Below, piece after piece: positions 32,539 through 54,036 of a stretch of DNA of 64,000 bases. Positions within the stretch are counted from its first letter, which is position 1. Every line of letters begins with the position of its first letter. The DNA is from an uncultured Candidatus Rokubacteria bacterium (lineage in GTDB: Bacteria; Methylomirabilota; Methylomirabilia; Rokubacteriales; CSP1-6): positions 832,001 through 896,000 of the forward strand of contig CAVYTA010000005.1 in the NCBI GenBank assembly GCA_963771355.1, written 5' to 3'. Below the pieces are notes generated by a model, which was given only the letters and a program-made list of their open reading frames with translations, was not told the DNA's origin and did no database searches. The translations under genes were made by a program, and so were the position numbers.

Positions 32539-32982
32539 TCACCTCCTCTCCGTTCTGACTGATAGACCTTTCTGACTGATAGACTTTCGATACAGGGACA
32601 GACCGCGGCCGGGCGATGGCGGGCTGGACCTCCACGACCGGAGCAATCCGCGGAGCTGCCCGCGAACCTGCTCCAGATCGGTCAGCACCCGCTCGATGTT
32701 CTCAAGCTTGACGTTGACGAGACGCAGGACGTGCGTGCACGGGGTCTGCCCGGAACGCTTGAGCGCCGCAATCTGCTTGATCTCATCCAGCCGGAAGCCG
32801 AGCCGCCGCGCCTGAGTGACAAACACGAGCAGCGCCAGCGTGTCGTCGGTGTAGACGCGATACCCAGCGGCCGTGCGGCGGGCGGGAGGTAAGATGCCGG
32901 CTCGCTCATAGAGGCGAAGCGCCTTGCGGCTGACGCCACTCTTCGCCGCTACCTCACCGATCAGCAGCCCGCTCCTCGCCAT
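32539..32982 (-). CDS. heavy-metal-responsive MerR family regulator (frameshift ~32622; 3' end approximate)
   Basis: IGEVA..GVSRKALRLYE, GYRVY, LGFRLDEI, PCTHV; AAVCPCIE lies in a shifted frame. Confidence 0.85.
   Translation of the reverse strand: MARSGLLIGEVAAKSGVSRKALRLYERAGILPPARRTAAGYRVYTDDTLALLVFVTQARRLGFRLDEIKQIAALKRSGQTPCTHVLRLVNVKLENIERVLTDLEQVRGQLRGLLRSWRSSPPSPGRGLSLYRKSISQKGLSVRTERR
32553..32584. repeat. tandem direct repeat, 15 nt unit at 17 nt period
   Basis: TTCTGACTGATAGAC at 32553 and 32570. Confidence 0.8.
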
Positions 32983-33952: not shown

Positions 33953-34426
33953 ATGAACCAGCTGGCAACAGTCGCCGCGATGCTCGTCGCGCTCGTCACG
34001 CTCATGCCGACGGCCGGGAGCCCCCAGGGCCACGGTGACCACGTGATGGTCACCCCGGCGGACCTCAAGTGGGCCGATGTGCCCTCGCTGCCGCCCGGCG
34101 CCAAGGTCGCCGTGATCGAGGGACCGATGAACGAGGCCAAGCCCTTCACGATGCGCCTGCGGCTCCCTGCCGACTACCAGGTCCCTGCGCACTTTCACAG
34201 CGCGATCGAGCACGTCACCGTGATCAGCGGCACCTTCAACATGGGCACCGGCGACAAGCTCGACACCAAGGCGACGCGGGCCCTCGGAGCGGGCAGCATC
34301 GCGATCATGCAGCCCGGCACCCGCCACTTCGCATGGACCAAGGAGGAAACCGTCGTCCAGGTCCACGGCGTGGGTCCGTGGACGGTCACCTACGTGAACC
34401 CGGCGGACGACCCGCGCAAGAAGTAG
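33953..34426 (+). CDS. exported cupin-domain protein
   Basis: Signal peptide; PAHFH..EHVTVISG, HFAW, QVHGVGP. Confidence 0.85.
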   Translation: MNQLATVAAMLVALVTLMPTAGSPQGHGDHVMVTPADLKWADVPSLPPGAKVAVIEGPMNEAKPFTMRLRLPADYQVPAHFHSAIEHVTVISGTFNMGTGDKLDTKATRALGAGSIAIMQPGTRHFAWTKEETVVQVHGVGPWTVTYVNPADDPRKK

Positions 34427-34429
34427 CAA

Positions 34430-34476
34430 CGGCGCGCGCCGGGCGGCCCGCGCACCCCGGTCGCCCGGCGCGCCGC
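34430..34476. terminator. inverted repeat between convergent genes
   Basis: GCGCGCCGGGCGGCC / GGTCGCCCGGCGCGC. Confidence 0.5.
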
Positions 34477-34480
34477 AGCC

Positions 34481-34786
34481 TCAGCGGAGCATCCAGGGCA
34501 TCACCCAGAGCGCTAGCGAGGCCGGCGTAGCGATCCAGAGCATGACGCGCTGCTGGTGCCCCCCAGCGCCTCGACGGTATGCGAAGTAGTGCCCGAGGGC
34601 GAGCGAGGCGATCGACACGGGAATCAGGACGATCTGCAGCTCCGCCATCCTGGCGGCGAGAGCTCCGCTCGCCACGCCCAGCACTCCGAGCGAGGCGGTC
34701 AGGAGCGTCGCCGGTCAGAGAACCCAGAGGAACGCCGAGCCAGCCGACAGCCCGCTTGACCATCCCACCTTGTGATCATTCAACAT
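34481..34786 (-). CDS. small MerT-like membrane protein with in-frame TGA (codon 24), candidate selenoprotein
   Basis: GAAAGGA RBS, ATG 34786; MLNDHKVGWSSGLSAGSAFLWVL-TGA(34717-34715)-PATLLTASLGVLGVASG continues in frame into ORF 34481..34684; three hydrophobic segments. Confidence 0.65.
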
Positions 34787-35450
34787 GTGCGATTCCTTTC
34801 TTGGTCCACGTGTCAGCGTCTGGGACTCGCCCACCGGGGGTGGGCTGGGCTATGCCGCGATAGAGGTACGAGCCCACCCGGGGTCCCGCAATGTAGCCCC
34901 GATTCACCTCCAAGGCTTCGAACCCACCCGATCGCAAGAGCCGGTCGATCGGTCGGTTCCAGTGGCAGCCACCCGCCACCCTCCGCCAGAGCGGCGTGAG
35001 CCGATCTTGCCACCGGACAACTGTCGGATCCGGCGAGCGTCCATGCTCGATGAAGATCAGCCGGCCCTGGGGCCGTAGCACACGACGCACCTCCTTGAGA
35101 GCCGCCACGGGATCCGGGATCGTGCAGAGCGTCCAGGTTGTAACGACGTCGTCCACCGACCCGGCCGCAAGCGGAATGGCCTCTGCCGGCCGGCAGAGGA
35201 ACTCCACCGGGAAGGCCGCGCCCTCCGCCCGCGAACGGGCCATCCGGAGCAGCTCCTCCGAGGGGTCCAGCGCGTAGAGCTTCAGCACCTCTCGGCTGTA
35301 GATCGGAAGGTTGAGTCCCGAGCCCACTCCGACCTCGAGGACCACACCTCTCGCCAGGGATACCCAGCGCGCCCGCTCGGGGCGGAGCGTACGGCTCCGC
35401 ATGGCGAGATCGGTGAGCGTCGGCAACACATGCTTGCGGTAGAGACCCAT
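34776..35450 (-). CDS. class I SAM-dependent methyltransferase
   Basis: VLEVGVGSG, AEAIP, TWTLCTIPD, RRVLRPQG, FIEHG, GGCHWNR. Confidence 0.9.
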   Translation of the reverse strand: MGLYRKHVLPTLTDLAMRSRTLRPERARWVSLARGVVLEVGVGSGLNLPIYSREVLKLYALDPSEELLRMARSRAEGAAFPVEFLCRPAEAIPLAAGSVDDVVTTWTLCTIPDPVAALKEVRRVLRPQGRLIFIEHGRSPDPTVVRWQDRLTPLWRRVAGGCHWNRPIDRLLRSGGFEALEVNRGYIAGPRVGSYLYRGIAQPTPGGRVPDADTWTKKGIAHVE

Positions 35451-35475
35451 CAGCCACCTCCTAGTAGCCAACCGC

Positions 35476-36181
35476 TCACCGGTGCATCTCCTGGCCCAAG
35501 GCTGCGACCAGCATCTGCACTACGGTGTCCTGCGCTACTCGCGGGTCGAACGGCTGCGGAGACGGATCCCAGTGGCGATGAACGGCCCAGAAGACCAGCG
35601 TCTCGATGATGAGCCGGGCGGCCACCATCGGGTCTGGGACCGGGCGCAACCGCCCCGCCCGGATGCCCCGCTCGAGGTATTGGGTCAGCAGGACCAGCAA
35701 CGCCTCGCGCCCCTGCGTGAACCAGAGCTTCGCGAGCGCCGGGTATTCAACCGCGCATCGGTCGACGAGCTTGATGCCGGTCCTGTTCCGCGCCATGGTT
35801 TCGTAGAGCTCACCCAGGATCCTGGTCAGCTCGGTCGCGTCCCCGGCGCCTCCGTGCCGCCTGAGTGCGACGAGGAGCGTCGGGCTCGCCGGCTGCTCGC
35901 GCGAGCCGCTGCTTGACCCACTGAAGAGTCCGGCCGCGGGCAGGCGTGCGGACCGGCAGACTTGGCGGCAGCGCGATCGGGCGCGGCGCGTCAGCGGAGC
36001 GGAGCACCGTGTCGAAGAGGGCGTCCTTGCTCTTCACGTAGAGGTAGACCGTACCCTTCGCCAGGCCCATCGCTTCGGCGATGTCACTCATCTGGGTGCG
36101 TCGGTACCCCTGGGCAATGAAGACACGCGTCGCAGCGTCGATGAGATCCTGAAAGCGCGAAGCGGGCACCCTGCGTGGCAC
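35476..36181 (-). CDS. TetR family regulator (frameshifted ~35810-35900)
   Basis: AATRVFIAQGY..TQMSDIAEAMGLAKGTVYLYVKSKDALF; C-terminal part in ORF 35476..35796. Confidence 0.8.
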
Positions 36182-36188
36182 GGCTCCG

Positions 36189-36216
36189 ACTTTACATGAC
36201 CGACCCGGTCAGTCAA
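36189..36216 (-). promoter_or_regulatory. promoter overlapped by a TetR-type palindromic operator
   Basis: TTGACT-16 nt-TAAAGT; palindrome TGACCGACC-C-GGTCAGTCA (36197-36215). Confidence 0.65.
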
Positions 36217-36261
36217 CTAGATTTTTCGAGGCCCCCGCTCGCCGGGGCTCTCTCGCCCTTC

Positions 36262-36693
36262 TCATCCGTCGCCCGCTCTGGCCGCCCGATCAGCGGCGAT
36301 GGTCTTCAACGAATCCTGTTCCAGCTTGAGCACGTGCTTGGCTACTACCCGGTAGGTCCACTGGTTGGGTGCGGTCTCACTGTTGAACTGCTCGTCGGTC
36401 AGCCCGATGAGTGAGCCGATCAGTCGCGCCCGCTCGGCGAGCCACTCGGCCAGGAGGCGTTGCATTGGCGACGCCGTGATCCGCGCCTCGTAGCGGCCCT
36501 CGAGGATCTGCGCGGTATGGATCTTTTCGTGATCGATATCGTTCGTGATGAGGGTCCAGACGTCCTTTCCTTGCGCGCAAGAGTGCGAGGATGGCGCCGC
36601 GAGCTCCCGATCGGACGCCTCGAGCAGGGCGTCCATGGTAGTCATCGTCTGCTCCATCAGCTCACGGATCGCACTGTGGACAGTCGCTGCCAT
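36262..36693 (-). CDS. DinB-like protein
   Basis: Helical; HEKIH and WTYRVVAKH DinB-type motifs; GGAGG RBS. Confidence 0.6.
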   Translation of the reverse strand: MAATVHSAIRELMEQTMTTMDALLEASDRELAAPSSHSCAQGKDVWTLITNDIDHEKIHTAQILEGRYEARITASPMQRLLAEWLAERARLIGSLIGLTDEQFNSETAPNQWTYRVVAKHVLKLEQDSLKTIAADRAARAGDG

Positions 36694-36741
36694 AGTTGCC
36701 TCCTGTCGGAGAGTCACCGCTTCGCCAGGGTCCAGAGGCCG

Positions 36742-37680
36742 TCATCGCCTGGTCGGTGCCTTTGCGTACGATACCGCGGCTCGACCCGGACCGCCGGCCG
36801 CTTCAAGCAGGTCCACGAAGGCTCGTCCGCTCGCCCCCAGCGTTCGGGCCTCGTTGTGGATCACGTGAAAGTGACGTCGAATGCGATGCCCACGAAGCCG
36901 GAGCGCGGATAGCTGCCCGGTTCGGAGCTCGCCGACAATCGCGTGCGACGACACGAACGCGACGCCCAAGCCCGCCATCACCGCCTGCTTGATCGCCTCG
37001 GTGTGGCCCAGCTCCATCGTGGGTCCGATTCGGGCGCCGACGTGCTGCAGCGCTCGCTCGGTGACCTGACGACTGGCCGACCCCTCCTCCCGGATGAGCA
37101 GCCGTTCCGCGCCGAGCAGGTTGGGGGCGATCTCGCGGCGTCGGCTCCAACGATGCCCCGGCGGCACAATGAGCACCAGCTCATCACAAATTCCCTTGGC
37201 CAGGCATTCCTCGCCGGGGGGGAACCCGTGTCCCCCGACCACGCCGAGATCGAGCTCGTTGGCGCGGATCTGTGCCTCGATGTCGGCTGAATTGGCGATC
37301 CGCACGCGCAGGGTGATCCCGGGGTACTGCCTCTGGAAGCGAGCGGCGAGGTGAGGGAGAACGTAGATCCCGGGAGTGGTACTGGCGCCGATCAGCAGCG
37401 AGCCGCGCTTCAGCCCCTCGAGCTCGGCGACGGTCTCGCGCGCGCTGGCAAGGGTCGCGAGGACACGTTGTGCGTGCTCCTCGAAGATTCGCCCGGCCTC
37501 GGTGAGAGCGACTCGCCGATTGAGCCGGTCGAAGAGGCGGGCGCCCAGCTCTCGTTCGAGCTCCGCTACGTGCTGAGAGAGGGCCGGTTGACTGAGGTGC
37601 AGAACCTCCGCCGCGGCCCGGAAGCTTCCGGCGCGCGCCACCGCGAGAAATACCTCGACCTGCCGGAGGGTGATCTGCAT
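36742..37680 (-). CDS. LysR family regulator (CysL/CmpR-like)
   Basis: SFRAAAEVLHLSQPALSQ, IGASTTPG, REEGSASR, TEAIKQAV.AGLG. Confidence 0.92.
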   Translation of the reverse strand: MQITLRQVEVFLAVARAGSFRAAAEVLHLSQPALSQHVAELERELGARLFDRLNRRVALTEAGRIFEEHAQRVLATLASARETVAELEGLKRGSLLIGASTTPGIYVLPHLAARFQRQYPGITLRVRIANSADIEAQIRANELDLGVVGGHGFPPGEECLAKGICDELVLIVPPGHRWSRRREIAPNLLGAERLLIREEGSASRQVTERALQHVGARIGPTMELGHTEAIKQAVMAGLGVAFVSSHAIVGELRTGQLSALRLRGHRIRRHFHVIHNEARTLGASGRAFVDLLEAAGGPGRAAVSYAKAPTRR

Positions 37681-37690
37681 AAGCCAGGCC

Positions 37691-37705
37691 TTATCGAACG
37701 GATAA
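37691..37705. promoter_or_regulatory. LysR-type T-N11-A palindromic box
   Basis: TTATC-GAACG-GATAA between divergent lysR and desaturase genes. Confidence 0.55.
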
Positions 37706-37751
37706 CAACACGCGATTGGAGCTTAATCAAGCCTGCCCTTAGCTTCGAGGT

Positions 37752-38580
37752 GTGGATCTCGTTGCGCAGGAGCCCACGGTTCGGGTGGCAATCTTCGCCG
37801 CGGCCTTGAGCTTGGTCGCGGCCGGCGAGATCGTGGCCCCGCGGCGCCCCCTCACCGTCCCCCGCCGGTCTCGATGGCCCAGCAACCTCGCCATCGTTCT
37901 TCTCAACACCCTCTTGGTGCGGGCGTTGCTCCCCGTGACCGCGGTGAGCATGGCCATGCTGGCGGAGGAGCGAGGTTGGGGACTCTTTCACGCGTCCGGA
38001 CCCTTACCCGCCTGGCTCGTCGTTCCGGTTACCGTGGTCTTCCTGGATCTCGCCATTTACCTCCAGCACGTCCTCTTTCATGCCGTGCCTATTCTGTGGC
38101 GGTTGCATCGCATGCATCACGCCGACCTGGACGTGGACGTGACCACGGGCGCGCGGTTCCATCCCCTCGAGATCGTGCTTTCGATGCTCCTGAAGTTCGG
38201 GGTGATCGCCGCGCTCGGAGCTCCGCCGCTCGCCGTCCTCGTGTTCGAGCTCCTTCTCAGTACCGGCTCCCTGTTCAACCATGGAAATCTTCGTCTGCCG
38301 CTTCCGAGCCGACGGAATCCTCCGCTGGATCGTCGTGACCCCCGATATGCATCGCGTCCACCACTCCGTTGCCCCGGGGGAGACCAATCGCAATTTCGGG
38401 TTCACGTTCTCCTGGTGGGATTGGATCGGCGGAACCTACCGGGCGCAGCCAGCCGGCGGCCACGCCCGAATGTTGCTCGGGATCGCTCAGTTCCGGGACG
38501 TGAGCGACCTACGCCTTGATCGCCTCTTGCTCCAGCCTCTTCTCGACGGCCCGGGGTCGTCGATAGGTACGGGCCGCTAG
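37752..38580 (+). CDS. sterol desaturase / fatty-acid hydroxylase family (frameshift ~38305)
   Basis: His boxes HVLFH, HRMHH, RFHP, HRVHH, NFG. Confidence 0.85.
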
Positions 38581-38611
38581 TGTTGGCCTGGTCCCGTCCC
38601 GACCGGTCGGG

Positions 38612-38735
38612 CAATCCCCCGATCCAAGACCTCCCCGGTCGCCTTGGGCACGAAGCGAACGCGTTCCGCCTGTGCCGCCTTGTTCTTCATGGCGAGCTCG
38701 ATGAGTGTCGGCACATACTTAGCGTAGACGCCCAT
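38612..38735 (-). pseudogene. 5' fragment of a methyltransferase paralogous to 34776..35450
   Basis: MGVYAKYVPTLIELAMKNKAAQAERVRFVPKATGEVL aligns with MGLYRKHVLPTLTDLAMRSRTLRPERARWVSLARGVVL and stops at the Gly-rich motif. Confidence 0.7.
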
Positions 38736-39856
38736 CCCCCTCCTCTCGCCGGGATGCTTCGTAGCGTTGTCTAATGTCGGCCTCGGTCACTGGATACGCC
38801 GGTACAAGATCGCCATCGAGATTGCGGCGGATCACTCCGCTGTCGATTGCTCGCTCCTCCGCTCTGGCCTTGTCGTCGCTCGACCATCCGCGCGTCACCG
38901 GTAAACGCGAGAACTTCCCATAGTGAACGAGCGATTCCACCCAGGCCACCTCTTCGCTTCCCAGCCGTTCTCTCGCGCACTGGAGAAGCTCCTCGGAGGC
39001 CATCTCCAGGCGGCGCAATACAAAGCGGCCCGGTATCGCGAGGTCCGCATACTGCTCGAAAGCGTCTCGCATACCGTCGGAGGATCGTGCCGCGCGTCGT
39101 GATCCGCCCCACCCCGGTATCCCGCCCCGCCTTCCGTCACTTGCTCCTGGCGATGAAACACCGCCAGGAATGATCCGTCCACGACGTAGAACTTCTGGTG
39201 GATCCGATCCCGCTCGAGAACCATGACGTCTATCCCGTGTTCTTCGATATCGCGCCTGACGATCTTCAGCCCATGGGCGATGACCTCGTCGAGATCGACC
39301 ACTCGACGGTAGGTCACTCCGGCACCGAGCCGGTCGCTCAAGGTCGCCCAGAACGACGCCACCTGCGGTAGTCGAGGGGACTTGCTGACCGCCACGATGG
39401 TCCGGCGGGCCTGCCCCATGGCCTCACAAATCAACTGCGCAAACTCATCCGTCGTCGCGGCGTCCCACTCGTGGTGGGCGAGCGCCGCTGCGAACGGTCG
39501 ATGAGCCGGCTGGCGACCGCGATGATCTCATCGCATATGCCGTCGCAGAATGTCCCGCCGGCATCGCCTCGTTAGTGCGCCATAGCAGCTCCGAGCTCAG
39601 GGACCGCCAGGCGATGTTCGGACTGATCGCATAGTACTGACGGCGTCGCAATCTCCGATACACACTGCCGACAAGACCCCGTTCCTGTAGCTGCCGCAGC
39701 GCACTGCCGACCTCGGTCGAGCACTCCGCTGAGCATCGACACGATCGCTCTCTTCGGCACCGGACCGCACGTCAACACGACCCCATACACTTGGGTCGCG
39801 GTCCGATCGAACCCGAGCTCGCTCATGAGCTGAAACAGCCGCACTCTATCGTCCAA
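38719..39856 (-). CDS. TrmB-like regulator (N-terminal HTH plus PLD-like domain), multiply frameshifted
   Basis: LMSELGF...QVYGVVL, YYAISP, GVTYRRVV, HQKFYVVD in successive frames. Confidence 0.5.
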
Positions 39857-39885
39857 CCCGTCCCCGCCTTTCGCCCCTGAGCATA

Positions 39886-41061
39886 TTACGAAGTGCTTCG
39901 AGCGCGGCTCGCCGCCCGTGGCCCAGAGCGCGGCCGCGGCGAGCGTGCCGATCACGCCCGCCGCGCCCCCCGCCGCGAAGCCCACGACATACCCATGCTG
40001 CGTGATGATGGGCCCCAGCCCAAAGGAACCGAGCGCGAACCCCAGATAGAGGGACGTGCTATAGCCCCCCATGACGAGCCCCCTGGTCGCGGGCGTCGCG
40101 GCGGACGCCAGGGCTACGCCAACGGCGACAAACGCGATCCCGCTGACCGCACCGAAGACGGCCACCAGCAGGAGCAAGGGCGTCTGGCCACCGACGTGAG
40201 GCAGAAGAATCGTCGCGACAGATGCGACCAGGACGCCAACGATTGCGCAGGGAGCGGGCCGCCCGGTGCGATCCACGAGCCAGCCCGCCGGCAACCGGGC
40301 CACCGTGTTGGCGAGCCGAGGACGAGGAATACGAAGCCGATGGCTGCGGGCGTGAGTCCTCGATCATGGCCGAGCAGCGGAAAGAAGCTGAAGACGACAC
40401 CCTGAATGAGAAGGCCGCTGATGGACAGGATCCACCCGGCCCAGACGGCGGCATTGCCTCTGATGTCGGTAAACGTTGCGCCGGATCGAGAGGTCGGAAG
40501 GGCGGGGGGCCGAATGGGGAGGACGAGGCCAACGATCAGAGCGAAGGCGACGCCGACGGCGCTCGTAACGAATGCGGCACGGTAGCCCCACCATTCGGCA
40601 GCGAGGCCGCCCAGGTACGGCCCGACTCCAATCGCTGCCATAGTGCGCCGTCGAGTACCACGCGAAGGCGTGTCCAGCCCGGCCCGGAGCCGCCGCGTCG
40701 CCCACCAACGAGAGGGCGCTCGGTGTGAACGCCGCCACTCCGAGACCCGCGAGGCCATAGATTGCCATCAGGGCGAGCGGATCTCGACCAGAGGGAGGAG
40801 CAGGGAGGTCCCGATGCTGACGATCATTCCTCCTAGCAGGAACCGGCGCCGGCCCCAAACGTCCGAGGCACGACCGAACGGGATGGAGCCGACCGCCGCC
40901 ACCATCATGTGCGCACCGAGGATCAGCCCGACCCCCGTGGCGGAGGCCCCGTGGGTGACGGCATAGAGGGGCAGGATCGGACCACGCATCTGCGCCGCGG
41001 CGTAGTGGAGGAACGTAAGCAGGCAAACGACGGCGAGAACGCTAAGAGGATTCGACGCCAA
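39886..41061 (-). CDS. MFS transporter, frameshifted
   Basis: PILPLYA, GRASDVWGRRR, GWLVDRTGR, TRGLVMGGY across frames. Confidence 0.8.
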
Positions 41062-41210
41062 GGCAAAGTCCCCCTGTCAACAGCTTTGAGGGACCTTACA
41101 GTCGCGGGCCTGGAGGCCCACGAACCCGTGGATCGAGGAGCGACCCACATCATTCCCTAACGTCGCCCTCGACAATAGTCTTCCATCGGACGTTCGTCAA
41201 GCTAAGCGGT

Positions 41211-41480
41211 CTATCGTTCTTCCGCTGCGTACGCCCCATACGCGAACGTCCGACGGTACGTGCGACCACAAGATCGAACCGTATCACCCGGCTACCGGGA
41301 GGCCACGTCATCGCAGGCGGGGCAGTCGCCCGGTGAGCGAGCGTCGCGGACCAGCGACCGGCGTCTTCTACACGCGCAGAGCGTGTCCCGCGCAGTGTGG
41401 GCACTCCACCAGGTCCCCCGACCGGGTTCCGTCGGGCAACGCGATCAGCGCGCCACAGTCGGGGCAGCCACTACCGGCAT
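41211..41480 (-). pseudogene. degenerate Cys-rich zinc-ribbon-like protein
   Basis: DCG..ECPHCAG..CPACDD..DTVRSCGRTYRRTFAYGAYA; C-terminal half matches 46173..46325. Confidence 0.6.
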
Positions 41481-41695
41481 CACCGAATCCCAAGAGCCGC
41501 TGCAGCCGTCGCGGTCAAGCCGACGACAACTCGTCGTCTACGGTGATGACGGGGACTGCATCGCCCGGTTCGCGTGATGAGCTCATCGCGCGTGCGGATC
41601 TCGGAACGTTTTGGCGTGAAGGCGAGGCATGAGAAAGAAACTCTTTCGCGCTGAAAGCTGTAGGTGAGAATGACGGTGATCTGCCGAGTCGCCAC
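41480..41695 (-). pseudogene. degenerate glutaredoxin/NrdH-like protein
   Basis: Fragments in shifting frames: AKEFLS, DELITRTG, VPVITVDDE, RLQRLLG; active-site region unreadable. Confidence 0.55.
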
Positions 41696-41696
41696 G

Positions 41697-42362
41697 CTAG
41701 TATCTCGTGAGCAAGCCCCCGAAGATCCAGTGGCCGATCTTGAACGCTTCCGTGACGGTGGCTCCAGAGCCTTGAGCGGCCGGGTTCGCGTCTCGCCAGG
41801 CCCTCAGATGTTCTTCCGACCGGAAGAAGTTGATCGTCGTTCAGAGCGAGTCGAAGGCCTTGCACGGCTCGTCACCGCGCGCTCCGAACCACACCATCAG
41901 CCCTTCGGCGGTCCCCACCACTCCGTCCGGCGTTGTGGCGATCTTCAGCGGTTCACCGCAGTGATGGCAGGACGACGTGATCTCGACGGGTTCTCCGACC
42001 ATCGGCGCGATGCCGAGTGCGTCGGTCGCGCAGCAGGCGTAGCGCTCGCGGGCGCCTGACAGACGCAGGCGAAACGGCGTTGCCGCGGCCGAGAACGGGT
42101 AGGCGACGTCGATCCGACCAGTGCGGATCCGGATCAGGTCGTCAGCATCGAGCGCGACGAGGGCATCGTGGACCGCCTCGGCCCGACGGTCAGGCGAGCC
42201 GGCGACGATGTCCTCGACGGGAATCGGCCCGCCTCGCTGCAGAAAGGTCCGGAGGATGAGCCGGACGAGAGGCTGCTGCCGAGCCGCCCGGCGAGCGGCC
42301 TGCCGCTCAAGCGGATCGAGGGCCTTCAATTCGTCAGCCGTCAGGATCACCAGGTTTGCCAC
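41697..42362 (-). CDS. merB: MerB-family organomercurial lyase homologue with in-frame TGA (codon 174), candidate selenoenzyme
   Basis: [14 protein letters not shown] (Cys96/Asp99 equivalents), SSCHHCG; FDSL-TGA(41843-41841)[15 protein letters not shown]...[18 protein letters not shown] matches the MerB SFCCHVHFFAS region. Confidence 0.85.
41811..41828 (-). promoter_or_regulatory. candidate bacterial SECIS hairpin
   Basis: 12 nt after TGA: UUCUUCC-GGUC-GGAAGAA, perfect 7-bp stem with G-first GGUC loop. Confidence 0.7.
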
Positions 42363-42389
42363 GATCGGCCTCCCCTCTCACTCGAACCG

Positions 42390-42420
42390 AGCGTAGAGTC
42401 TGTAGTAGCTCCAGACTCAA
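42390..42420 (-). promoter_or_regulatory. MerR-type promoter/operator (19-bp spacer) driving merB
   Basis: TTGAGT-19 nt-TACGCT with GAGTCTG...CAGACTC dyad. Confidence 0.8.
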
Positions 42421-42446
42421 GGATTATTTCAGAAGGGGGCAAGGGC

Positions 42447-42879
42447 ATGGCGGACACGGGGCGGATCGCCATCGGCGCGCTGTCGAAGCGGACCGGTACC
42501 AATATCGAGACCATCCGCTACTACGAGCGCGTCAGGTTGCTGCCCGCTCCGGCTCGGAGCTCGGGAGGCTACCGCCTGTATGGGACTGGGCACCTGAAGC
42601 GGCTGAGCTTCATCCGCCGGGCGCGCGCGCTCGGGTTCTCGCTCGCCGAGGTGCGAACCCTGCTGGCTCTTGCAGATCAGCGACGGCGCCCGTGCGCCGA
42701 GGTGCGGGTGGTGGCGGCGGCTCACCTTGATGACGTGAAAGGAAGATCGCGACTTGAAGGCGATGGAACATGCGCTGGCAGAGACCATCGCGCGCTGTGA
42801 GGCGGGTAGCGGCTCGCACTGTCCGGTGATCGACGCGCTATGTACCACCCGAGGCTACCCAGCCCAGAAGCGCGGATAG
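42447..42879 (+). CDS. MerR family metal regulator (three-Cys MerR/CadR/PbrR type), frameshift ~42745
   Basis: IETIRYYER, GGYRLY, FIRRARALGFSL, PCAEVR, RCEAGSGSHCPVIDAL. Confidence 0.85.
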
Positions 42880-43195
42880 AGCTCCCGGAGTTGCCAAGAC
42901 CAACCGGACGTCTGGGCGGCGGCGCTCGGTCAGATAGCGCTCCCGCACCGTCGGATCGCTCAGCGGCGTGCCGCTGGCGCAGCACATGATGGAGCGCGCG
43001 TCGTCGGTATGCGGCAGGCCCACGGCGTGGCCCAGCTCGTGGCCGCCCACCTCGACCAGGAGCGGCTCCGACTCCGGGTGGACGCCCCCAAGAGGCAGCA
43101 TCAGGTCGATGCGCACCGGGCGCTTGATCGCCCCGAGATCGTCGTGTTCGAGGTAGGTCCGGTTGGGCACCTGAGGAAACCTCTCAGGGACGAGA
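42838..43195 (-). pseudogene. 3' fragment of a matrixin/metzincin zinc metalloprotease
   Basis: HELGHAVGLPH plus SIM Met-turn; 5' part replaced by the czcA fragment. Confidence 0.65.
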
Positions 43196-44334
43196 TTCTC
43201 CTCTCGGGCACCCGTGCCCAGATTGCCATCAAGCTCTTCGGTGCCGATCTCGGCATCTTGAGAACGAAGGCGGGCGAGATCCGCGACGCGATGGCCAGGG
43301 TCGCCGGAATCGTGGACCTGCTCGTCGAGCCTCAGGTCGGAGTGCCCCAGGTCCAGATCAATCTGGACCGGCGCGCCGCGGCGGCGGTCGGGCTTCGCGC
43401 GGAAGATCTCACGGAGACGGTGGAGACCGCCTTCAGCGGCCACGTCGTCTCCCAGGTGCTGCAGGAACAGCGAAGCTACGACATCCTCGTGCGCCTGGAC
43501 GACACCGCCCGGGAATCGGTCGGACGATCCGCCGAACCCTCATCGACACCCCCAGCGGTGCTCGCGTCCCCATCGGCCAGCCCGCCGGAGGTCCGGGTCG
43601 ATGCGGGACCGAACACCATCAACCGGGATAACGTGCAGCGGCGCATCATCGTGCAGGCCAACGTCACGGGCCGGGACCTCGGCAGCGTGATCGCCGAGGT
43701 CCGGCAGGCGATCGCCGCGCGGGTCGCGCTGCCGCAGGGATACTTCGTCCAGTACGGCGGGCAGTTCGAGTCGCAGGAGCGGGCGGTTCGGCAGATCGCG
43801 CTGCTTTCTGCCGCGGCCATCGGAGGGATCTTCCTCCTCCTCTACCTGGCGCTCCGTTCCAGCCGTTTGGCCACGCTCGTGATGGCCAACTTGCCGCTCG
43901 CGCTGATCGGCGGGGTCGTCATGGTGTTCGTGGCGGGCGGCACGCTGTCGATCGCCTCCCTCATCGGATTCATCGCGCTCTTCGGCATCGCGACCCGGAA
44001 CGGCATCATGCTCATCACCCACTACCGCCACCTCATGGAGGAGGAGGGCGTGGGCTTTCGGGACGCCATCGTTCAGGGATCGATGGAGCGGCTGAGCCCC
44101 ATCCTCATGACGGCGCTCGTCACCGGTATCGGCCTCGTTCCGTTGGCGCTCGGCGCCGGTCAACCGGGGAAGAGATCCAGCAGCCCATGGCTATCGTGAT
44201 CCTGGGCGGGATTGCCACCTCGACGGCGCTCAACATGATCGTCATTCCTGCGCTCTACCGTGAAGTTCGGACGCGCGGAGGCGCGGCGGACGCGCGAGGA
44301 GCCGGCCGTAGGTACGGCCGCTCTCAGCGGCTAG
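43196..44334 (+). pseudogene. C-terminal fragment of a CzcA/CusA heavy-metal RND pump
   Basis: LSGTRAQIAIKLFG, GPNTINR, YGGQFE, GIATRNGI, ERLSPILMT; N-terminal ~two thirds absent; frameshifts. Confidence 0.8.
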
Positions 44335-44363
44335 CTGCCGGCTCATCCGGGCAGCACATCACC

Positions 44364-44555
44364 ATGCTGCTGCGGAGCATAGTCGCGCTTGGCGTCGTGG
44401 CTACCATCGCGGTGCTGATCGCGTGGGTGCTTGTTCGGCTGATGTGGTCGCCGCCCTCGTCTACCGCCGCTCGGGCAGCGCTGGTCTGCACTATTCTCAT
44501 CCTGACCGCTATTGGCCTGTGGGTCTTCTTCGTGCTGCCCGCATACTGGGACTGA
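44364..44555 (+). CDS. small 2-TM hypothetical protein
   Basis: Two hydrophobic segments; weak RBS. Confidence 0.45.
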   Translation: MLLRSIVALGVVATIAVLIAWVLVRLMWSPPSSTAARAALVCTILILTAIGLWVFFVLPAYWD

Positions 44556-44691
44556 TCTCGGAGGGCGGATTGAGCCGGTCACACGGAGCGACATATCCAC
44601 GCTGTGCGCCGCCGGGAGCGAGGAGCCCGCGCGCGGGGCGACCGCGGTCGCCGGCGATTGATCTGCTGGACCCTCCGCGAGGAGATTCCTG

Positions 44692-44860
44692 ATGGATAGC
44701 GTCTCCTTTGAGATGGTACTCATCGCGCTCGGCACCCTGGCCAATGGGTTCTTCTTCGAGTCCGAGTTCGCCCTGGTATCTCGCGCATCAGCCGGCTGGC
44801 CCAGCTGCGCGAGCAGGCCGTGCGGGGCGCGGCTGCCGCGATGCGCCTCAAGGAGAAGCC
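44692..44860 (+). pseudogene. 5' fragment of a hemolysin/CNNM (DUF21) protein
   Basis: GGAG RBS; LANGFFFESEFALVS motif, then disrupted. Confidence 0.6.
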
Positions 44861-44861
44861 C

Positions 44862-44973
44862 CTGCTCGTTCGTAGAGGCGAAGCGCCTTGCGGCTGGCGC
44901 CGTTCTTCGCCGCCATCTCACCGATCAGCAGCCCGTTTCTCGCCATGACTGGAGGTAAGTCCTGCCCCGCGGG
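44862..44973 (-). pseudogene. truncated duplicate of the merR at 32982 (first ~29 codons plus half promoter)
   Basis: MARNGLLIGEMAAKNGASRKALRLYERAG vs MARSGLLIGEVAAKSGVSRKALRLYERAG; upstream GGGGCAGG..TTACC remnant. Confidence 0.8.
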
Positions 44974-45069
44974 ACTCCGAGCGCTCCGTCTCGAAGCAGG
45001 AAGTAGCAGAAACACAGCACATGCTGCCCGGAGGCGGCAAACGACCTCTTGAAAGGAGCGCACTTCCTC

Positions 45070-45399
45070 ATGGCTTCGGTGATCAACTCGATCGTGCTCT
45101 TCCTGGTGGCGGGCCTCTGCGAGATTGGGGGCGGCTACCTCGTGTGGCAGTGGTGGCGTAACGGGAAGTCGGCGTTCATCGGTGCTCTAGGAGCCGCGGT
45201 GCTCGTCCTCTACGGCATCGTGCCGACATACCAGCCGCAGCACTTCGGGCGTGTCTACGCGGCCTACGGCGGCGTTTTCGTCGTCCTCTCGGTCATCTGG
45301 GGTTGGGGCGTGGATGGCATCGCGCCAGACCGCTTCGACATCCTCGGCGGGCTCATCTGCTTGATCGGCGTCGCGGTGATCATGTACTGGCCCCGGTAG
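45070..45399 (+). CDS. YnfA (UPF0060) family membrane protein
   Basis: [33 protein letters not shown]. Confidence 0.9.
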
Positions 45400-45440
45400 G
45401 CCGCCCGGGAGGCTGCGATCAGCGCGGGCATGCCTACCTC

Positions 45441-45764
45441 CTAGCGCGTCGGCGGCGGCGCTCCCGAAGGCGGAGAACCCTTCGTCGACGCGCGGAACCC
45501 GAGGCGATCTATAGCCTCGATCATCTGCGGGACCGCCACCTGTGCGGGGTCGAAGGTCACGACCGCCTCCTTCGCCCTCAGGCTCACATCTGCCCGACTC
45601 AGACCCCTCAGCCCTTCCAGGGCCTTCTTCACTCCAACGGGGCAGGCGCCTCAGGTCATTCCGTCCACCGTGAGGACCACCGTGGACGTCGCGGCCTACA
45701 ACGCGGTGGATGCAACGACCAGCAGGCCCAGTAGCACGGCGACGACCGACACCCATCGATTCAC
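45441..45764 (-). CDS. merP: MerP-like periplasmic HMA protein with GMT-TGA-GAC (UxxC), candidate selenoprotein; also a TAG at codon 23
   Basis: AGGAGG RBS, GTG 45764; signal peptide ..TAL-TAG(45698)-AATSTVVLTVDGMT-TGA(45653-45651)-GACPVGVKKALEGL..AVVTFDP..GF. Confidence 0.75.
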
Positions 45765-46163
45765 TGCGTTCCTCCTATGGTGTGGCCGGTGTGAGACTGA
45801 TCAGCGGTCATCACGTACGCCAGCAGATCGGAGGTGAACTCGGGGAAATGATCGAGCACGATGGTCGTAGCGACGACCAGGCTCGCCAGGATCAGCAGCC
45901 CGAGCGTGATGCGACTGCCTGCCGTCCGGCAGGCTGGCCAGCGCGTCACAGCGCCGCCGCTCCCGCCGGTACAGGACGAAGCCGGCGACGATGCCGATGA
46001 TCCCGGCCGGGACCAGCAGCCAACGGTACTGCATCGTCGTCGCCATGAACGCGCCACTCCCAAGCCCAAGCACGATCACTGCGAGAGGGAGAAGACAGCA
46101 GAGCGAGGCGAGCGCCGCCCCCATCCACGCGACCAAGCCAGCAGCGAGCGCTGCACGTTTCAT
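45761..46163 (-). CDS. merT: MerT-family mercury transporter (frameshift ~45930)
   Basis: AALASLCCLLPL..LGLGSGA, YRWLL, YRRERRRC; GTGA overlap with merP. Confidence 0.75.
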
Positions 46164-46172
46164 AGTGTCCGC

Positions 46173-46325
46173 CTACCCTTCTGCTGGGGCGTACGCCCCA
46201 TACTCGAACGTCAGACGGTACGTGCGACCGCAGCATCGAACCGTATCTCCCGGCTTCACGTCGTCGGGGAGGGTCAGTACGTCATCGCACTCGGGGCAAC
46301 TCACCCGACAAGCGAGCGTCGCTCT
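46173..46325 (-). pseudogene. 3' half of Cys-rich zinc-ribbon-like protein
   Basis: RVSCPECDD..DTVRCCGRTYRLTFEYGAY; begins directly at the promoter without its 5' half. Confidence 0.6.
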
Positions 46326-46336
46326 CACCTGAGCTG

Positions 46337-46367
46337 AGGGTAGAGTCTGTAGTAACTCCAGACTCAA
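46337..46367 (-). promoter_or_regulatory. second MerR-type promoter/operator (19-bp spacer) driving merT-merP
   Basis: TTGAGT-19 nt-TACCCT with GAGTCTG...CAGACTC dyad. Confidence 0.8.
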
Positions 46368-46392
46368 GGACTATTCGGGGGGGGGCAAGGGC

Positions 46393-46798
46393 ATGGCGGA
46401 CACGGGGCGGATCGCCATCGGCGCGCTGTCGAAGCACACGGGGACGAACATCGAGACCATCCGCTACTACGAGCGCGTCGGGTTGCTGCCCGCTCCGGCT
46501 CGGAGCTCGGGAGGCTACCGCCTGTATGGGACGGGGCACCTGAAGCGGCTGAGCTTCATCCGCCGGGCCCGCGCTCGGGTTCTCGCTCGCCGAGGTGCGA
46601 ACGCTGCTGACTCTGGCAGATCGAGCGACGGCGCCCGTGCGCCGAGGTGCGGGTGGTGGTGGCGGCGCACCTTGATGACGTGAAAGGGAAGATCGCCGAC
46701 TTGAAGGCGATGGGGCATGCGCTGGCAGAGACCATCGCGCGCTGCGAGGCGGGGAGCGGCTCCCGCACTGTCCGGTGATCGACGCGCTCGATGCTTAG
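46393..46798 (+). CDS. MerR family regulator, near-identical paralogue of 42447..42879 (several frameshifts)
   Basis: MADTGRIAIGALSK.TGTNIETIRYYER...CPVIDALDA. Confidence 0.8.
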
Positions 46799-46813
46799 GG
46801 GCCAGCTCGTCAC

Positions 46814-47444
46814 CTAGGGGATCGTTAGCGGACGCAGGGCGCGCCTCGCTTCGCCGATAATCCTGATGGCCGAGGTAGCGAACATTGCGGCGGATCAGGA
46901 GACCCACCGCGATGTCCGGCCACGCGGAGCCCGTGAGGGCGACCCCGCCCGCCGCCATCAGCACTCCGGCATTGGCCATCACATCATTCCGGGAGCAGAG
47001 CCACGCGGAGCGCATGTTGATGTCGTCACCCCGACGCCGCCAGAGCAGGAACAGACAGATCACGTTGGCGGCCAACGCGAGGAGGCCGATGCCCCCCATG
47101 AGCCCGGCGGCCGGGACGATACCTCGGGCGATTTTCAGGATTGCTTCCAGGAGGACGCCGAGGCCGAAGATTGCCATCACGGTCCCTTTGAGCAGCGCCG
47201 CGCGCGCCTGCCAGACGCTACCCCGGCTCACGACATAGAGGCTGAAGCCGTACACGAGCGCGTCCCCGAGCATGTCCACCGAGTCCGCCAGGAGGGCCGT
47301 CGAGCCGGCGAGAAGCCCCGCACCAAACTCCACCAGGAACATAGCGGCATTGATACACAGGACGATCTGGAGCACCCGGCGCTGCCGGGCGGGAACATCA
47401 ACCATCACCTCACAGCAGTCTTTCACGGCACATTCATTATGCAT
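46814..47444 (-). CDS. cation diffusion facilitator (short Co/Zn/Cd/Pb type), frameshift ~46893
   Basis: KDCCE, STALLADSVDMLGD, NMRSAWLCSRND, WPD. Confidence 0.85.
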
Positions 47445-47550
47445 GAGGGGCCCGGCTCGGAGCCACGCTTGCGGCGATGCGACCCGACGGCGGGACCGTC
47501 CCGCCTTCGATCGGAGAGCATGGAGTGCTGTGCGGGCACGTCTTCGTGTT

Positions 47551-48749
47551 TCAACTGGATGGCGTGTTTCCTAGTGCTCTCCGCCCGGAGGAGGAAGCTG
47601 CCCTCGGTGACCACCCTCTCCCCGGGGTGCAGCCCGGACACGACCGCATAGAACTCGCCCACCGGGACCCAGGCGTACCGTGCGCTGGATGAACTCCCCT
47701 CCTCGTCCTGGCGGCCACGAAGACCACCTGGCGCCCGCCGAGCGTCTGGACGGCCGCCTTCGGCACCAGCCGCCGTCGCCCGCCGCGGTCCGAAGACCAC
47801 GGTCACGAACATCCCCAGCCGAAGCCGCCCTCCGGGTTCGGCACCTCGACCCGGACCTTGGCCGTCCGCGCCTGGGGGTCGACCCGCGGGTCGATATAGG
47901 TCACGCGGCCCCGGAGCGCGTGCCGGGGTAGGCCGGCGTCTGATGGCGGCCTCGGAGCCGACGCCGACGCCGCGAAGTCCTGCTCGTAGAGATCGCCGAC
48001 CACCCAGACCTCGAGAGGTCGGTCACGACGAAGAGCTCCTGCCCATGCCGACCACCTGGCCGGGATTCGCGGACCGGCCGGTAATGACGCCGCCGATCGG
48101 CGCCGGTACCGTCACTTGGAGATGACCTGAGTGGACCTCGGAGGCCTCGACCTGTTCTGCCGTAGCCCGAGCAGCAGCAGCCGCTGGCGCGCGGCCGCGA
48201 CCTCGGTCGCGTGGCTGGCATGGACCGCCGTCACCTCCTCGAGCTCCTGACGGCTCGCCGCGCCGATCGCCGCGAGCGCCTGCGTGCGTTCGCGCTTCTG
48301 GTGGTCGGCCTCCAGCATGGCCCCCATGGAGAGATACTTCGTCTGGGCGTCGGCGAGCTCCGTGCTGAAGACGTGGCGAGCGGCTGCCGCGCCCCACCGC
48401 CGCGCCCAGCTCGACATGCACCTTGCGGACGATGCCGGCCGCGACGGGCGTGACTTTGGTCTCCCGGTAGGCGTTCGCCACCACACTGCCGGGCACGATG
48501 ACCTCCATTACGTGGAGCCGGCCGTCACCGGCGCGGTCTTGATCCCGGCTCGCGTTACCGCCTCGGGGTTCAGCACGACTCGACGTCCGCGGCGGCCGCC
48601 GGCGATGGCCGGCCGTCACGGGAGCCGCCGCCGGGGGGCGGCGGCCGATCGACACCCGAGCGGCGCGCCACCACAGTGCCGGCAGCCCCGAGCGCCGTGA
48701 AGCCGAGCGCGCCGCCAACCCAGAGAAGCGCGGCGACCGATCGGCTCAC
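47551..48749 (-). CDS. RND efflux periplasmic adaptor (CusB/CzcB-like), heavily frameshifted
   Basis: N-terminal TM; VPAPIGG, GRVTYIDPRVDPQARTAKVRVEVPN, GLHPGERVVTEGSFLL in shifting frames. Confidence 0.75.
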
Positions 48750-50039
48750 GATGCTTCTCCGATGGCTCGCTCGATCTCCACCGCGGCGTCATAGACCTGC
48801 TTGAGCACCTCCGTATACCCGTCTCGACCTCGATGAGCGGCGCTGCTCGGCGATGACGTCGAGCAGCGGACCGCGGCCGAGCCGTAGGCTCTGGCGGACG
48901 ACGTCGAGATTCTGCCGCGCCACGTCCCGCACGCCGCGCTCGTAGAGTCTCGAGCGAGCGCCGGGCCGCCTCGTACTGGGTGAAGGCCGCGGCGACCTCC
49001 TGGCGCACCATGAGCTCGAGCGAATTCCCGCCGCCGCTCCGGCCGCTCGCGCCTCGGCCTGCGCCGCCGCGATGTTGCCCTCGTTGCGGTTGCGCACGGG
49101 CAGGGTGATCGTGACCCCGCCGCCGACAATAATGGAAAGACGTCCTGGATCGGGCGCGTCGCCCCGCGGTCGTCAGGCCGCTCAGGTCGAAGCCGAAGTC
49201 CTGGCGCTGGTAGCCGACGTTGACGCTGGCGTCCCAGCGCCCCTCGGCCTCTTCCTTCCGGATCCGCGCCCGCGCCATCGCCGACCTCGGCCCGGGCCGC
49301 GCGGAGGTCGGGCCGGTCGGCGAGCGCCTGCGCTCGAGGCCCTCGTCGCGGTCGATCCGCACCGCCGGCGGCGTCCAGCTCGCCCCGCCGACTCGAGCGG
49401 CTCTCCGGCGGCAAGCCCGGCGAGCGCCTGAGCTGGAGCGTGCAGCACCTCGACCCGGCTCCAGGACTGCTGGGCTGGCCTCCAGGCGATTGACCTCGAC
49501 GAGCAGCAGGTTCTCGTCGAGCGGGGGCGCCGCCCCGCGGCGCACGCGCTCCCCGACGAGGCCGAGCGCCTGCCGGTTCGCCTGCGAGCAGCTCTCGCGT
49601 GACGGCAGGTTGCGCCGCGCGGCCAGCAGCTCCCCGGCCTTGAGCCGGATCTCGGCCCGCAGCCGCCGCTCCCGCTCGGCGAGCTGCGCCTGCTTGACCC
49701 CAGCTCGCGCTCGGCCACCCGACGCGGCCCTCCTTCCGGCCGTTCAGGTCGAGCGGCAGCGTCACGCCCACCGATGAGGTTGTTGTCCGGGCCCGGTGAC
49801 GCTTTCTGGCCCGCGAGGTCGAGCATCGGGTTCGGGCGAAGCCCCGCCTGCTGGACGCGCGCCGCGCGCCGCCTCCACCTCGGCGCGCGCCGCCTGCAGC
49901 TCGGGGTGTTCCGCGAGCGCCCGCGCGACGAGCTCGTCGACCGTGACTCGCGCCGCGGTCGGCGGCGCTCTGGGCCGACGCCACGACGGCGATCGCCACC
50001 AGGAGCAGCAGGACGGGCTCCCGCCGAGCGTCGCATCAC
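48746..50039 (-). CDS. TolC/CzcC-type outer-membrane factor, heavily frameshifted
   Basis: QAGLRPNP, VTLPLD..GRKEGR, RPDLRAA, RNRNEGNI, LLDVIAEQR. Confidence 0.75.
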
Positions 50040-50047
50040 GGCACCTC

Positions 50048-50455
50048 CTAGCGCACCGGCACGGAGAACCGCGTCGAGCCCTTCCCCGCCGGCCCGTCCC
50101 AGGTCACCGTCACCTGCCGCGCGCCGCTGTCGGGGAAGCTGATCGTCCCCTGGTAGCGGCCCGGGCGCTTGTCCGGCGCAGCGTGGCCCCGGCGATCATC
50201 GGCGCCATGCCCGGCATCGCCATGCTGGTGCTGAGGCACCTTGCCGGCATCGACCGGCTTCCCGTCTTGGCCGAGGTGAACTCCAGCGACGAAGTGTTCT
50301 TCCCTGCGTCCACTGCCCGGACTCGCTCGCAGCGTCACGCACGTCCTTGGTCTTCTGCGTCTGGATGGCCTTGAGCTCGGCCCCCGGCCGGGCCGAGCGA
50401 GCCCGCCAGCGATCAGCAGACCGATCACGACACTCAGCACGATTGCACGTGTCAT
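50048..50455 (-). CDS. exported FixH/YtkA-like Met-rich accessory protein, frameshifted
   Basis: Signal peptide; SMAMPGMAPM, PGRYQGTISFPDSG. Confidence 0.6.
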   Translation of the reverse strand: MTRAIVLSVVIGLLIAGGLARPGRGPSSRPSRRRRPRTCVTLRASPGSGRREEHFVAGVHLGQDGKPVDAGKVPQHQHGDAGHGADDRRGHAAPDKRPGRYQGTISFPDSGARQVTVTWDGPAGKGSTRFSVPVR

Positions 50456-50467
50456 TCGTCCTCCTTG

Positions 50468-53400: not shown

Positions 53401-53661
53401 GCCGAGGACGAGCGCACCACCCGCACGCCCGGCAGTCCCTGCAGGCTGACCGTGAGCGGATAGGTGATCTGGTCCTCGACTTCCTGCGGCGAGCGGCCCG
53501 GCCAGTCGGTGAAGACGATGACCTGGTTGTCGGAGAGGTCCGGGATGGCGTCGATCGGCGTGGTGAGCAAGCGCCCAGTAGCCCCAGCCCCCAAGCAGCA
53601 GGAAGACGACGATCACCAGGAAGCGGTTGCGCAGCGAGACCTCGATCAGCCAGTTGATCAT
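50468..53661 (-). CDS. CusA/SilA-type heavy-metal RND efflux pump, multiply frameshifted
   Basis: [89 protein letters not shown]. Confidence 0.9.
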
Positions 53662-53775
53662 TGGCTCCCCTGGGGGCTCCCCTCGCCCGCGCCATGGATC
53701 GCTGTCCGCCTAGAAGTGGGCGGACGAGGACCGGCGCAGGCGACTCCGACAGCTAGGACGTGGAGCTAGAGCGCG

Positions 53776-54036
53776 CTACAGCGAGGAGGGAGCGAGTTTC
53801 GGGGGAGCGTCGAGAACGTGACCGCTATTCAGAGGTAGATGCCCATCGAGGCTGGATCCGACCCAGCGCACGGGCGCTTCGGACGCGACGGCAGCGGGTA
53901 TTTGCATGGCCGCGCTCGTGGTCCCGCAAAGCGCGTCGCAGCCGTCCATCCCGGCGCACGAAAAAGCCATGCCCACGGGTCCGAGAAGGACCCAGAGAAC
54001 CATGACCATCACGGTGACGAGCCGTCGCCGACTCAT
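53776..54036 (-). CDS. small Cys/Met-containing ORF preceding the RND operon
   Basis: Signal-like N-terminus, CAGMDGCDALC, C-terminal DAPPK. Confidence 0.6.
   Translation of the reverse strand: MSRRRLVTVMVMVLWVLLGPVGMAFSCAGMDGCDALCGTTSAAMQIPAAVASEAPVRWVGSSLDGHLPLNSGHVLDAPPKLAPSSL

Follow-up and report, generated by a model that had tools for sequence, protein, structure and literature searches.

A predicted selenocysteine at the catalytic mercury-ligand site of a MerB-family protein in Rokubacteria and their relatives

The 64,000-nucleotide stretch of Candidatus Rokubacteria DNA analysed here (hereafter the window) carries on its minus strand (41697..42362) a gene for a MerB-family lyase of 221 aa, whose in-frame TGA codon (41841..41843, minus strand) is predicted with near certainty to be read as selenocysteine and, as Sec174, aligns with Cys159 of MerB. 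Judged by its sequence profile, the encoded protein is a member of Pfam family PF03243 but of neither curated family within reach, canonical MerB and SaoL. The gene likely heads a mercury-induced operon, and in many relatives this operon appears to encode two more predicted selenium proteins and usually no mercury reductase. The clade unites a predicted Sec at the catalytic mercury ligand of MerB with a mer-type regulator and predicted Sec-containing partners.

A sequence-only reading of the window had carried the 173-aa open reading frame through its stop codon to a TAG, and the translation bears this out, giving 173 aa, the TGA, a further 47 aa and the TAG. Its placing of the TGA at MerB Cys159 was also borne out, phmmer against the PDB pairing KAFDSL-U-TTINFF with VRQSF-C159-SHVHFF, and the same search aligned YACCATD with the Cys96/Asp99 motif, so that the other catalytic pair is intact, as had been said. 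All five matches of the read-through product among solved structures are MerB or MerB2 (3f2g and 5c17 among them). The alignment places C111 and D114 of the motif C110-C111-x-x-D114 (42021..42035, minus strand) at Cys96 and Asp99, and Cys132 (41967..41969, minus strand) at the structural Cys117; in the homologue alignment C110 is an additional cysteine typical of the Sec-MerB clade, and an N-terminal extension, a CC motif and a CHH motif are clade-specific. The first three members of the canonical residue set (Cys96, Asp99, Cys117, Cys159; PMC8261052) are present, and position 159 is the TGA/Sec.

Against Pfam MerB (PF03243, gathering score 27) the read-through product scores 102.8 bits versus 58.8 for the truncated ORF, and residues 175-221 alone match positions 87-126 of the model with 27.2 bits, just over that threshold. 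This stretch beyond the TGA, which the earlier reading had singled out for comparison with the MerB C-terminus, aligns with the MerB structures as well as with the Pfam model. The scores stay below the NCBIfam cut-offs for canonical MerB (NF033555 / PRK13239), with 56.4 versus 200 and 76.9 versus 193. An AlphaFold model built on an 88-sequence alignment has a mean pLDDT of 93.5 and resolves residues 163-174, which had a pLDDT below 50 in an earlier model built on 9 sequences; with Foldseek, 11 of 11 matches at E<=0.001 are MerB structures, with TM about 0.66-0.68.

The TGA at codon 174 occurs in all eight GTDB loci found (57-82% identity), seven of them from Rokubacteria or Methylomirabilota and one from Acidobacteria. 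Matches at E<=0.001 are present in 156 of 251 phylum genomes, tallies that include a few unpublished genomes, and each of the 43 best phylum matches has one TGA. Among non-redundant homologues with at least 170 bits (n=53), 50 have TGA at the site and 3 have Cys; such homologue counts are not independent events, because the homologues are kin. In databases the clade is mostly represented by fragments of ~173 aa, 119 of the 120 best database homologues ending at columns 168-173. Short-read contigs of two other runs (X2 record 1, X4 record 11) span the TGA codon, with no difference listed there. The catalytic Asp is retained at column 114 of the clade, and Leu173 precedes Sec in 45 of 50 main-clade genes.

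Downstream of the TGA lies a predicted SECIS hairpin (41811..41828, minus strand) with a 7-bp stem and a GGUC loop 19 nt after the UGA, spanning codons F179-E184. The perfect hairpin that had been reported 12 nt past the TGA, TTCTTCC-GGTC-GGAAGAA, was found at that place, and its likeness in the GGUC loop to the E. coli fdhF SECIS proved accurate, since fdhF folds with a GGTC loop 18 nt after its UGA. Both elements share the GGUC apical loop at 18-19 nt from the UGA, whereas the stem of fdhF is bulged and longer in its lower part, and the element described here has a perfect 7-bp stem and a variable lower stem. All four features of the published bSECIS model, as set out in excerpts of PMC13188914, are found in the hairpin (GGUC loop, 7 bp, 19 nt, -8.1 kcal/mol).

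Taken by itself the hairpin is within chance. Its folding significance is low (z = 0.69 over 64 nt), a stem of at least 7 bp follows 206 of 1809 ordinary terminal TGAs of the genome under a loose SECIS model, and a scan of this genome gave no genome-wide excess of GGTC hairpins at matching distance after TGA; the background to these statistics is a genome of 70% GC. Rfam returned no relevant family in the 41-47 kb part of the window. The case for recoding holds because the hairpin is conserved in homologues and not because of the hairpin alone. We compared codons and stems in a non-redundant set of 92 genes that span the site, drawn from loci chosen among the matches, with two unpublished loci left out. 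The codons of F179, F180, R181 and S182 (TTC TTC CGG TCG) are 100% identical in 50 of 50 TGA genes. At 48 other conserved columns the commonest codon has a mean share of 0.65, though 3 of these columns reach 0.95 too. A stem of at least 6 bp occurs in 48/50 main-clade Sec genes, 12/19 other Sec genes and 4/23 Cys genes, and a GGTC/GTAC tetraloop in 0/23 Cys genes. Conservation of the hairpin in TGA-bearing homologues, on which the earlier reading had staked its claim, is thus observed: the GGUC hairpin is kept in 48 of 50 TGA forms and lost in the three Cys forms. One of the Cys-bearing genes (L047) retains the FFRSED peptide with codons that disrupt the stem. Remoter Sec clades have different stems with a G-first loop, such as CTTCTTCT-GTAC-GGAAGAAG in family f13 and TGCTC-GGTC-GAGCA in a clade with the motif HT-U-P.

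The genome (99.8% complete) holds tRNA-Sec, SelA, SelB and SelD, and SelB is found in 223 of the 251 phylum genomes. Of the three Cys carriers, G170 (98% complete) has neither SelA nor SelB, in keeping with recoding. Against recoding, the other two keep both, and a TGA copy and no SelB match are found in six genomes (G180, G083, G092, G157, G169, G189), which are MAGs 69-95% complete. Among 24 in-frame-TGA candidates of the genome picked by eye, this gene included, 22 have a G-loop stem of at least 6 bp. In-frame TGAs occur genome-wide in redox motifs, three Mo-oxidoreductases carry EHQAR-x-U-HS, and the closest FdhF homologue has Cys. Peroxiredoxin-, AhpD-, DsrE-, TlpA-, DsbA- and rhodanese-like motifs mark numerous other candidates for selenoproteins.

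Sec at the MerB Cys159 site has already been published, as Sec162 of SaoL (Haft and Gwadz, bioRxiv 10.1101/2022.07.06.499078, in the part available), so that what is new here is the clade with its operon and not the site. SaoL, with the motif CU, figures in passages of two reviews as the only MerB-like selenoprotein family (PMC13188914, PMC9312934). Like the clade, SaoL (NF040728) has the MerB fold, Sec at the Cys159 site and the Cys96/Asp99 equivalents, and its database entries too are truncated ~50 aa before the end. It differs in having CU (or CC) where the clade has L-U, and in lying in a nine-gene SAO locus instead of a MerR/glutaredoxin/zinc-ribbon/merT/merP context. The SaoL HMM gives our protein 53.6 bits versus a cut-off of 140, while the positive controls P0371, P0376 and P0380 score 187-201, and none of the 251 phylum genomes passes this model. 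With three of the eight partner models, run with no positive control genome, there was no match for SaoC and SaoB in the genome and none above cut-off for SaoP. In a 73-row tree the clade has a support of 100/100, SaoL is nested among Cys proteins and at least eight Sec/Cys changes are required; the clade and SaoL stand two supported branches apart, with an AU p of 0.14 for joining them (the tree including 3 truncated SaoL rows) and of 0.75 in a quick tree. An origin of Sec independent of SaoL is not supported by these values, since in neither case does the AU test reject a joint clade.

Compared with MerB (plasmid R831b; PDB 3F0O, 3F2F, 1S6L) and MerB2 (5C17), the protein shares full-length PF03243, the structural similarity already given (TM about 0.66-0.68), the Cys96, Asp99 and Cys117 equivalents and a MerR-type promoter. 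In contrast, the clade carries Sec in place of Cys159, has a Thr where MerB has Cys160, places an additional Cys directly ahead of Cys96 and usually has no MerA; our protein is ~24% identical to MerB and falls below the NCBIfam MerB cut-offs. At least four other MerB-like clades have TGA at the same site (L137-L138, L145-L155, L085; P0382, P0383, P0385, P0388-P0390), among them the HT-U-P clade, f13 (with P0301, a truncated protein from Ca. Methylomirabilis lanthanidiphila named 'Alkylmercury lyase'), a clade with CGFE and Glu for Asp99, and one with IVFT-U whose database members end at the site.

Upstream of the gene lies a MerR-type promoter (42390..42420, minus strand) composed of TTGAGT, a 19-bp spacer with the dyad CTGGAG-N3-CTACAG, and TACGCT, followed by a divergent MerR-family regulator gene (42447..42879, plus strand). 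The latter has a frameshift near 42740-42749 that is probably an assembly error, because the bases lost here are present in a short-read contig (X5 record 18). A near-identical dyad, CTGTAG-N3-CTACAG, precedes merT in plasmid merT-merP-merBA operons, and intact relatives of the regulator share 60-64% identity with the regulators that control mer operons in Alphaproteobacteria. The regulator itself stays below every NCBIfam cut-off, MerR being best with 139 versus 151, just under TIGR02051. A Cd/Pb/Zn-type operator, our first guess from HMM scores of the partial protein, was dropped since regulator and dyad match mer operons.

The operon was followed in the 44 main-clade genes that the MerB query retrieved, smaller denominators (42, 43, 39) being the genes with enough flank. 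A glutaredoxin gene lies directly behind merB in 15/44, 14 of these with TGA in YWSxT-U-QxC, and in relatives it is often followed by a zinc ribbon, merT and MerP(UxxU). A divergent MerR is present in 12/42, merT adjoins 10/43 homologues and a MerP-like gene 7/39, mostly with GMT-U-G-x-U-P. The remaining 29 of 44 main-clade genes have no operon partner at all and stand amid metabolic genes, for instance beside ORFs labelled from their sequence as pyruvate-dehydrogenase-like and rhodanese-like. The operon resembles the alphaproteobacterial merR-merT-merP-merBA plasmid operons (Aminobacter pSR2, Bradyrhizobium pBbPL7HG1) in its regulator (~60-64% identical), dyad, 19-bp spacer, merT and HMA partner; in contrast to these, the clade has merB first, unfused to merA, and no reductase, adds a Sec glutaredoxin and a zinc ribbon, and has a UxxU or UxxC MerP. 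In L022, L025, L029, L033, L035 and L087-L100 the second UGA of the UxxU MerP-like genes lies inside a TGACC-N6-GGTCA stem, after which comes a GCCCT-GGA-AGGGC hairpin; the UxxC form of the window keeps only this second one.

No MerA was found in this 99.8% complete genome (best score 377 versus a cut-off of 454), and MerA is above cut-off in only 8 of the 251 phylum genomes. In G209 the operon of a related Sec-MerB, from the HT-U-P clade, also includes a true merA (L137). According to an excerpt of PMC8261052, cells that have MerB but no MerA should be harmed by it. The genome also encodes a MerA/glutathione-reductase-like flavoprotein (G000:C6:100973-102304, minus strand; L045) with GGTCVNWG-U-IPKK and a hairpin after the TGA, and a like flavoprotein lies three genes downstream of Sec-merB in G228 (L114:5177-6379). 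Its predicted Sec stands as the second Cys of a CxxxxC redox pair, and it has no C-terminal CC; it is a possible stand-in for MerA.

By a modest preference, we read the gene product as a mercury-induced Sec organomercurial lyase that would hand Hg(II) to selenium glutaredoxin or thiols rather than to MerA; the sequence basis of this reading is the TGA with its conserved hairpin, the Sec machinery, the Cys96/Asp99/Cys117 equivalents, the MerB fold and the MerR-type promoter. The mer-like regulator and operator, the merT and merP neighbours of some homologues and the merA beside a related Sec-MerB in G209 speak for the link to mercury; against the reading stand the scores below the NCBIfam MerB and MerR cut-offs, the 29 of 44 genes with no operon partner, the rarity of MerA and the broken merT and merP of the window. 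In canonical MerB, as outlined in part of PMC10114901, R-Hg is bound by Cys96 and then by Cys159, whose proton is relayed through water to Asp99 for protonation of the carbon, and Hg(II) is then channelled to MerA. For the clade we propose that the divergent MerR would sense Hg(II) and switch on merB, the glutaredoxin and the zinc ribbon (in relatives also merT and merP), and that SelB would bind the GGUC hairpin for Sec to be inserted at codon 174. The Cys111 thiolate would bind R-Hg+, the Sec174 selenolate would join to give S-Hg-Se, and Asp114 would protonate the carbon with release of R-H. With a pKa near 5, the selenolate would already be ionised, which should allow faster capture of trace organomercury and means that Sec174, unlike Cys159 in the published path, would be no proton donor; the solvent, in place of residue 159, would then supply the proton, and the product would be bound more tightly. 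Because the genome is without MerA, we propose that the UxxC glutaredoxin or thiols would strip off the tightly held Hg(II), with Cys110 perhaps as an intermediate. That Cys110 and the Sec glutaredoxin release Hg(II) where MerA is missing seems to us somewhat better than an even guess.

On a wider scale, it is conceivable, if on the doubtful side, that Rokubacteria and their relatives run a MerA-less selenium mercury system in which UxxU MerP and MerT would import organomercury, Sec-MerB would cleave it, and Sec glutaredoxin and zinc ribbon would remove Hg(II), with an Hg-Se or Hg-thiol sink as the end point. If true, there would be a widespread soil demethylation capacity uncounted so far, which could also account for the long-noted genomes with merB and without merA.

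It is rather unlikely, yet deserves the most attention among the alternatives, that we are dealing with a selenoenzyme of MerB fold that acts mainly on something other than mercury and whose mer-like operon is a secondary recruitment, the substrate being another organometal or metalloid, or the reaction a housekeeping one on metal-carbon or metal-thiol bonds. The 29 of 44 main-clade genes that stand alone are what this reading would expect, as are the matches in 156 of 251 phylum genomes when MerA is in 8, and the clade-specific N-terminal extension, CC motif and CHH motif; on like grounds Haft and Gwadz, in a passage of bioRxiv 10.1101/2022.07.06.499078, question whether SaoL acts on Hg. However, the whole Cys96/Asp99/Cys117/159 set is retained, operator and regulator of this copy resemble those of plasmid mer operons, and a related Sec clade sits beside merA (L137).

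We consider it improbable that the protein is instead a selenium-based mercury trap, which, after cleaving or binding a single organomercurial, would keep Hg(II) on its Sec and make MerA unneeded. Such a trap would suit the absence of MerA here and in most carriers and the Sec-rich operon partners, and selenoamino acids chemically demethylate methylmercury to HgSe, as stated in part of PMC10114901; yet the co-encoded Sec glutaredoxin (14/15 with TGA) suggests recycling, the catalytic Asp is retained, and stoichiometric use of Sec would presumably be costly. Finally, a true stop or a sequencing error, leaving a 173-aa truncated protein or a pseudogene in an island whose neighbouring genes (34-54 kb) are full of frameshifts, is very improbable even though the hairpin alone is not significant, given the TGA in 50 of 53 homologues, the conserved downstream frame and frozen codons, the agreement of short-read contigs on the TGA, the completion of the Pfam domain by the downstream segment and the presence of the Sec machinery.

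The Sec-MerB clade and its operon are not described in the literature searched, a search outside which most subscription papers lay, and BSepDB may already file some clade genes under MerB-like/SaoL. Haft and Gwadz found no selenoprotein in mercury resistance, according to an excerpt of bioRxiv 10.1101/2022.07.06.499078. Published merB surveys, as far as their excerpted methods go, retain only sequences with Cys96, Asp99 and Cys159 (PMC8261052, PMC12484752); since gene callers truncate the clade genes and surveys demand Cys159, these genes would be discarded, and the methylmercury-degrading potential of soil Methylomirabilota may be undercounted. The clade offers a handle on the question of merB without merA, and its natural Sec and Cys versions, at ~48% identity, make sulfur versus selenium at a MerB active site directly testable.

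Several of the partners encoded in the window are damaged. Behind merB lie a garbled YruB-like glutaredoxin gene (41480..41695, minus strand; YWSxT-U-QxC in relatives), its SECIS-like hairpin still visible, and a garbled double LysW-like zinc-ribbon gene (41211..41480, minus strand), an intact homologue of which matches PF21344. In the glutaredoxin region contig X3 record 9 shows 28 gap letters, and a loose end of X2 reads YWSST-TGA-QAC. The damage to the glutaredoxin, zinc-ribbon and merR genes is probably assembly error, because short-read contigs contain the lost bases. The merT and merP genes lie 3.4 kb from merB behind a second MerR-family regulator (46393..46683, plus strand, ORF as called with frame breaks) and a second copy of the MerR-type promoter (46337..46367, minus strand), which is followed by the C-terminal half of a zinc-ribbon gene (46173..46328, minus strand).

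The MerT-like transporter gene (45764..46163, minus strand) has a frameshift near 45935, its letters identical in the independent short-read contig X1 record 7 (0 differences, 0 gaps). The gene for a MerP-like HMA protein (45441..45764, minus strand) has the motif GMT-U-GAC with TGA at 45653-45651, and an in-frame TAG in the signal peptide (45698-45696) that is present too in contigs X1 record 7 and X5 record 22. Because independent contigs show both the frameshift and the TAG unchanged, merT and merP of the window look truly broken, and mercury uptake may therefore be lost in this strain. The MerP-like protein passes the model for UxxU metal-binding (seleno)proteins NF041115 (102.6 versus 95), so that catalogues already include Sec in proteins resembling those of mercury transport; another named family near it is the MerT/CopZ selenoprotein NF045683, and Sec MerP-like proteins are on record in part of PMC2398784. 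In the literature searched we found no operon that joins an NF041115-type protein with a Sec-MerB.

In contigs of runs X5 and X6 the end of merB runs straight into the half zinc-ribbon gene before merT (window 41671 and 46254), a strain variant without most of the glutaredoxin. The surrounding region of the window (34000-54000) is a metal-resistance island with two CusA/CzcA-type RND genes, a CDF transporter and YnfA, together with a third MerR-family gene (32539-32982) and a LysR whose nearest family is NF040786, of selenium metabolism (231.8 versus 250). The genes of the 34-54 kb part are full of frameshifts, which are partly assembly error, and the flanks are intact.
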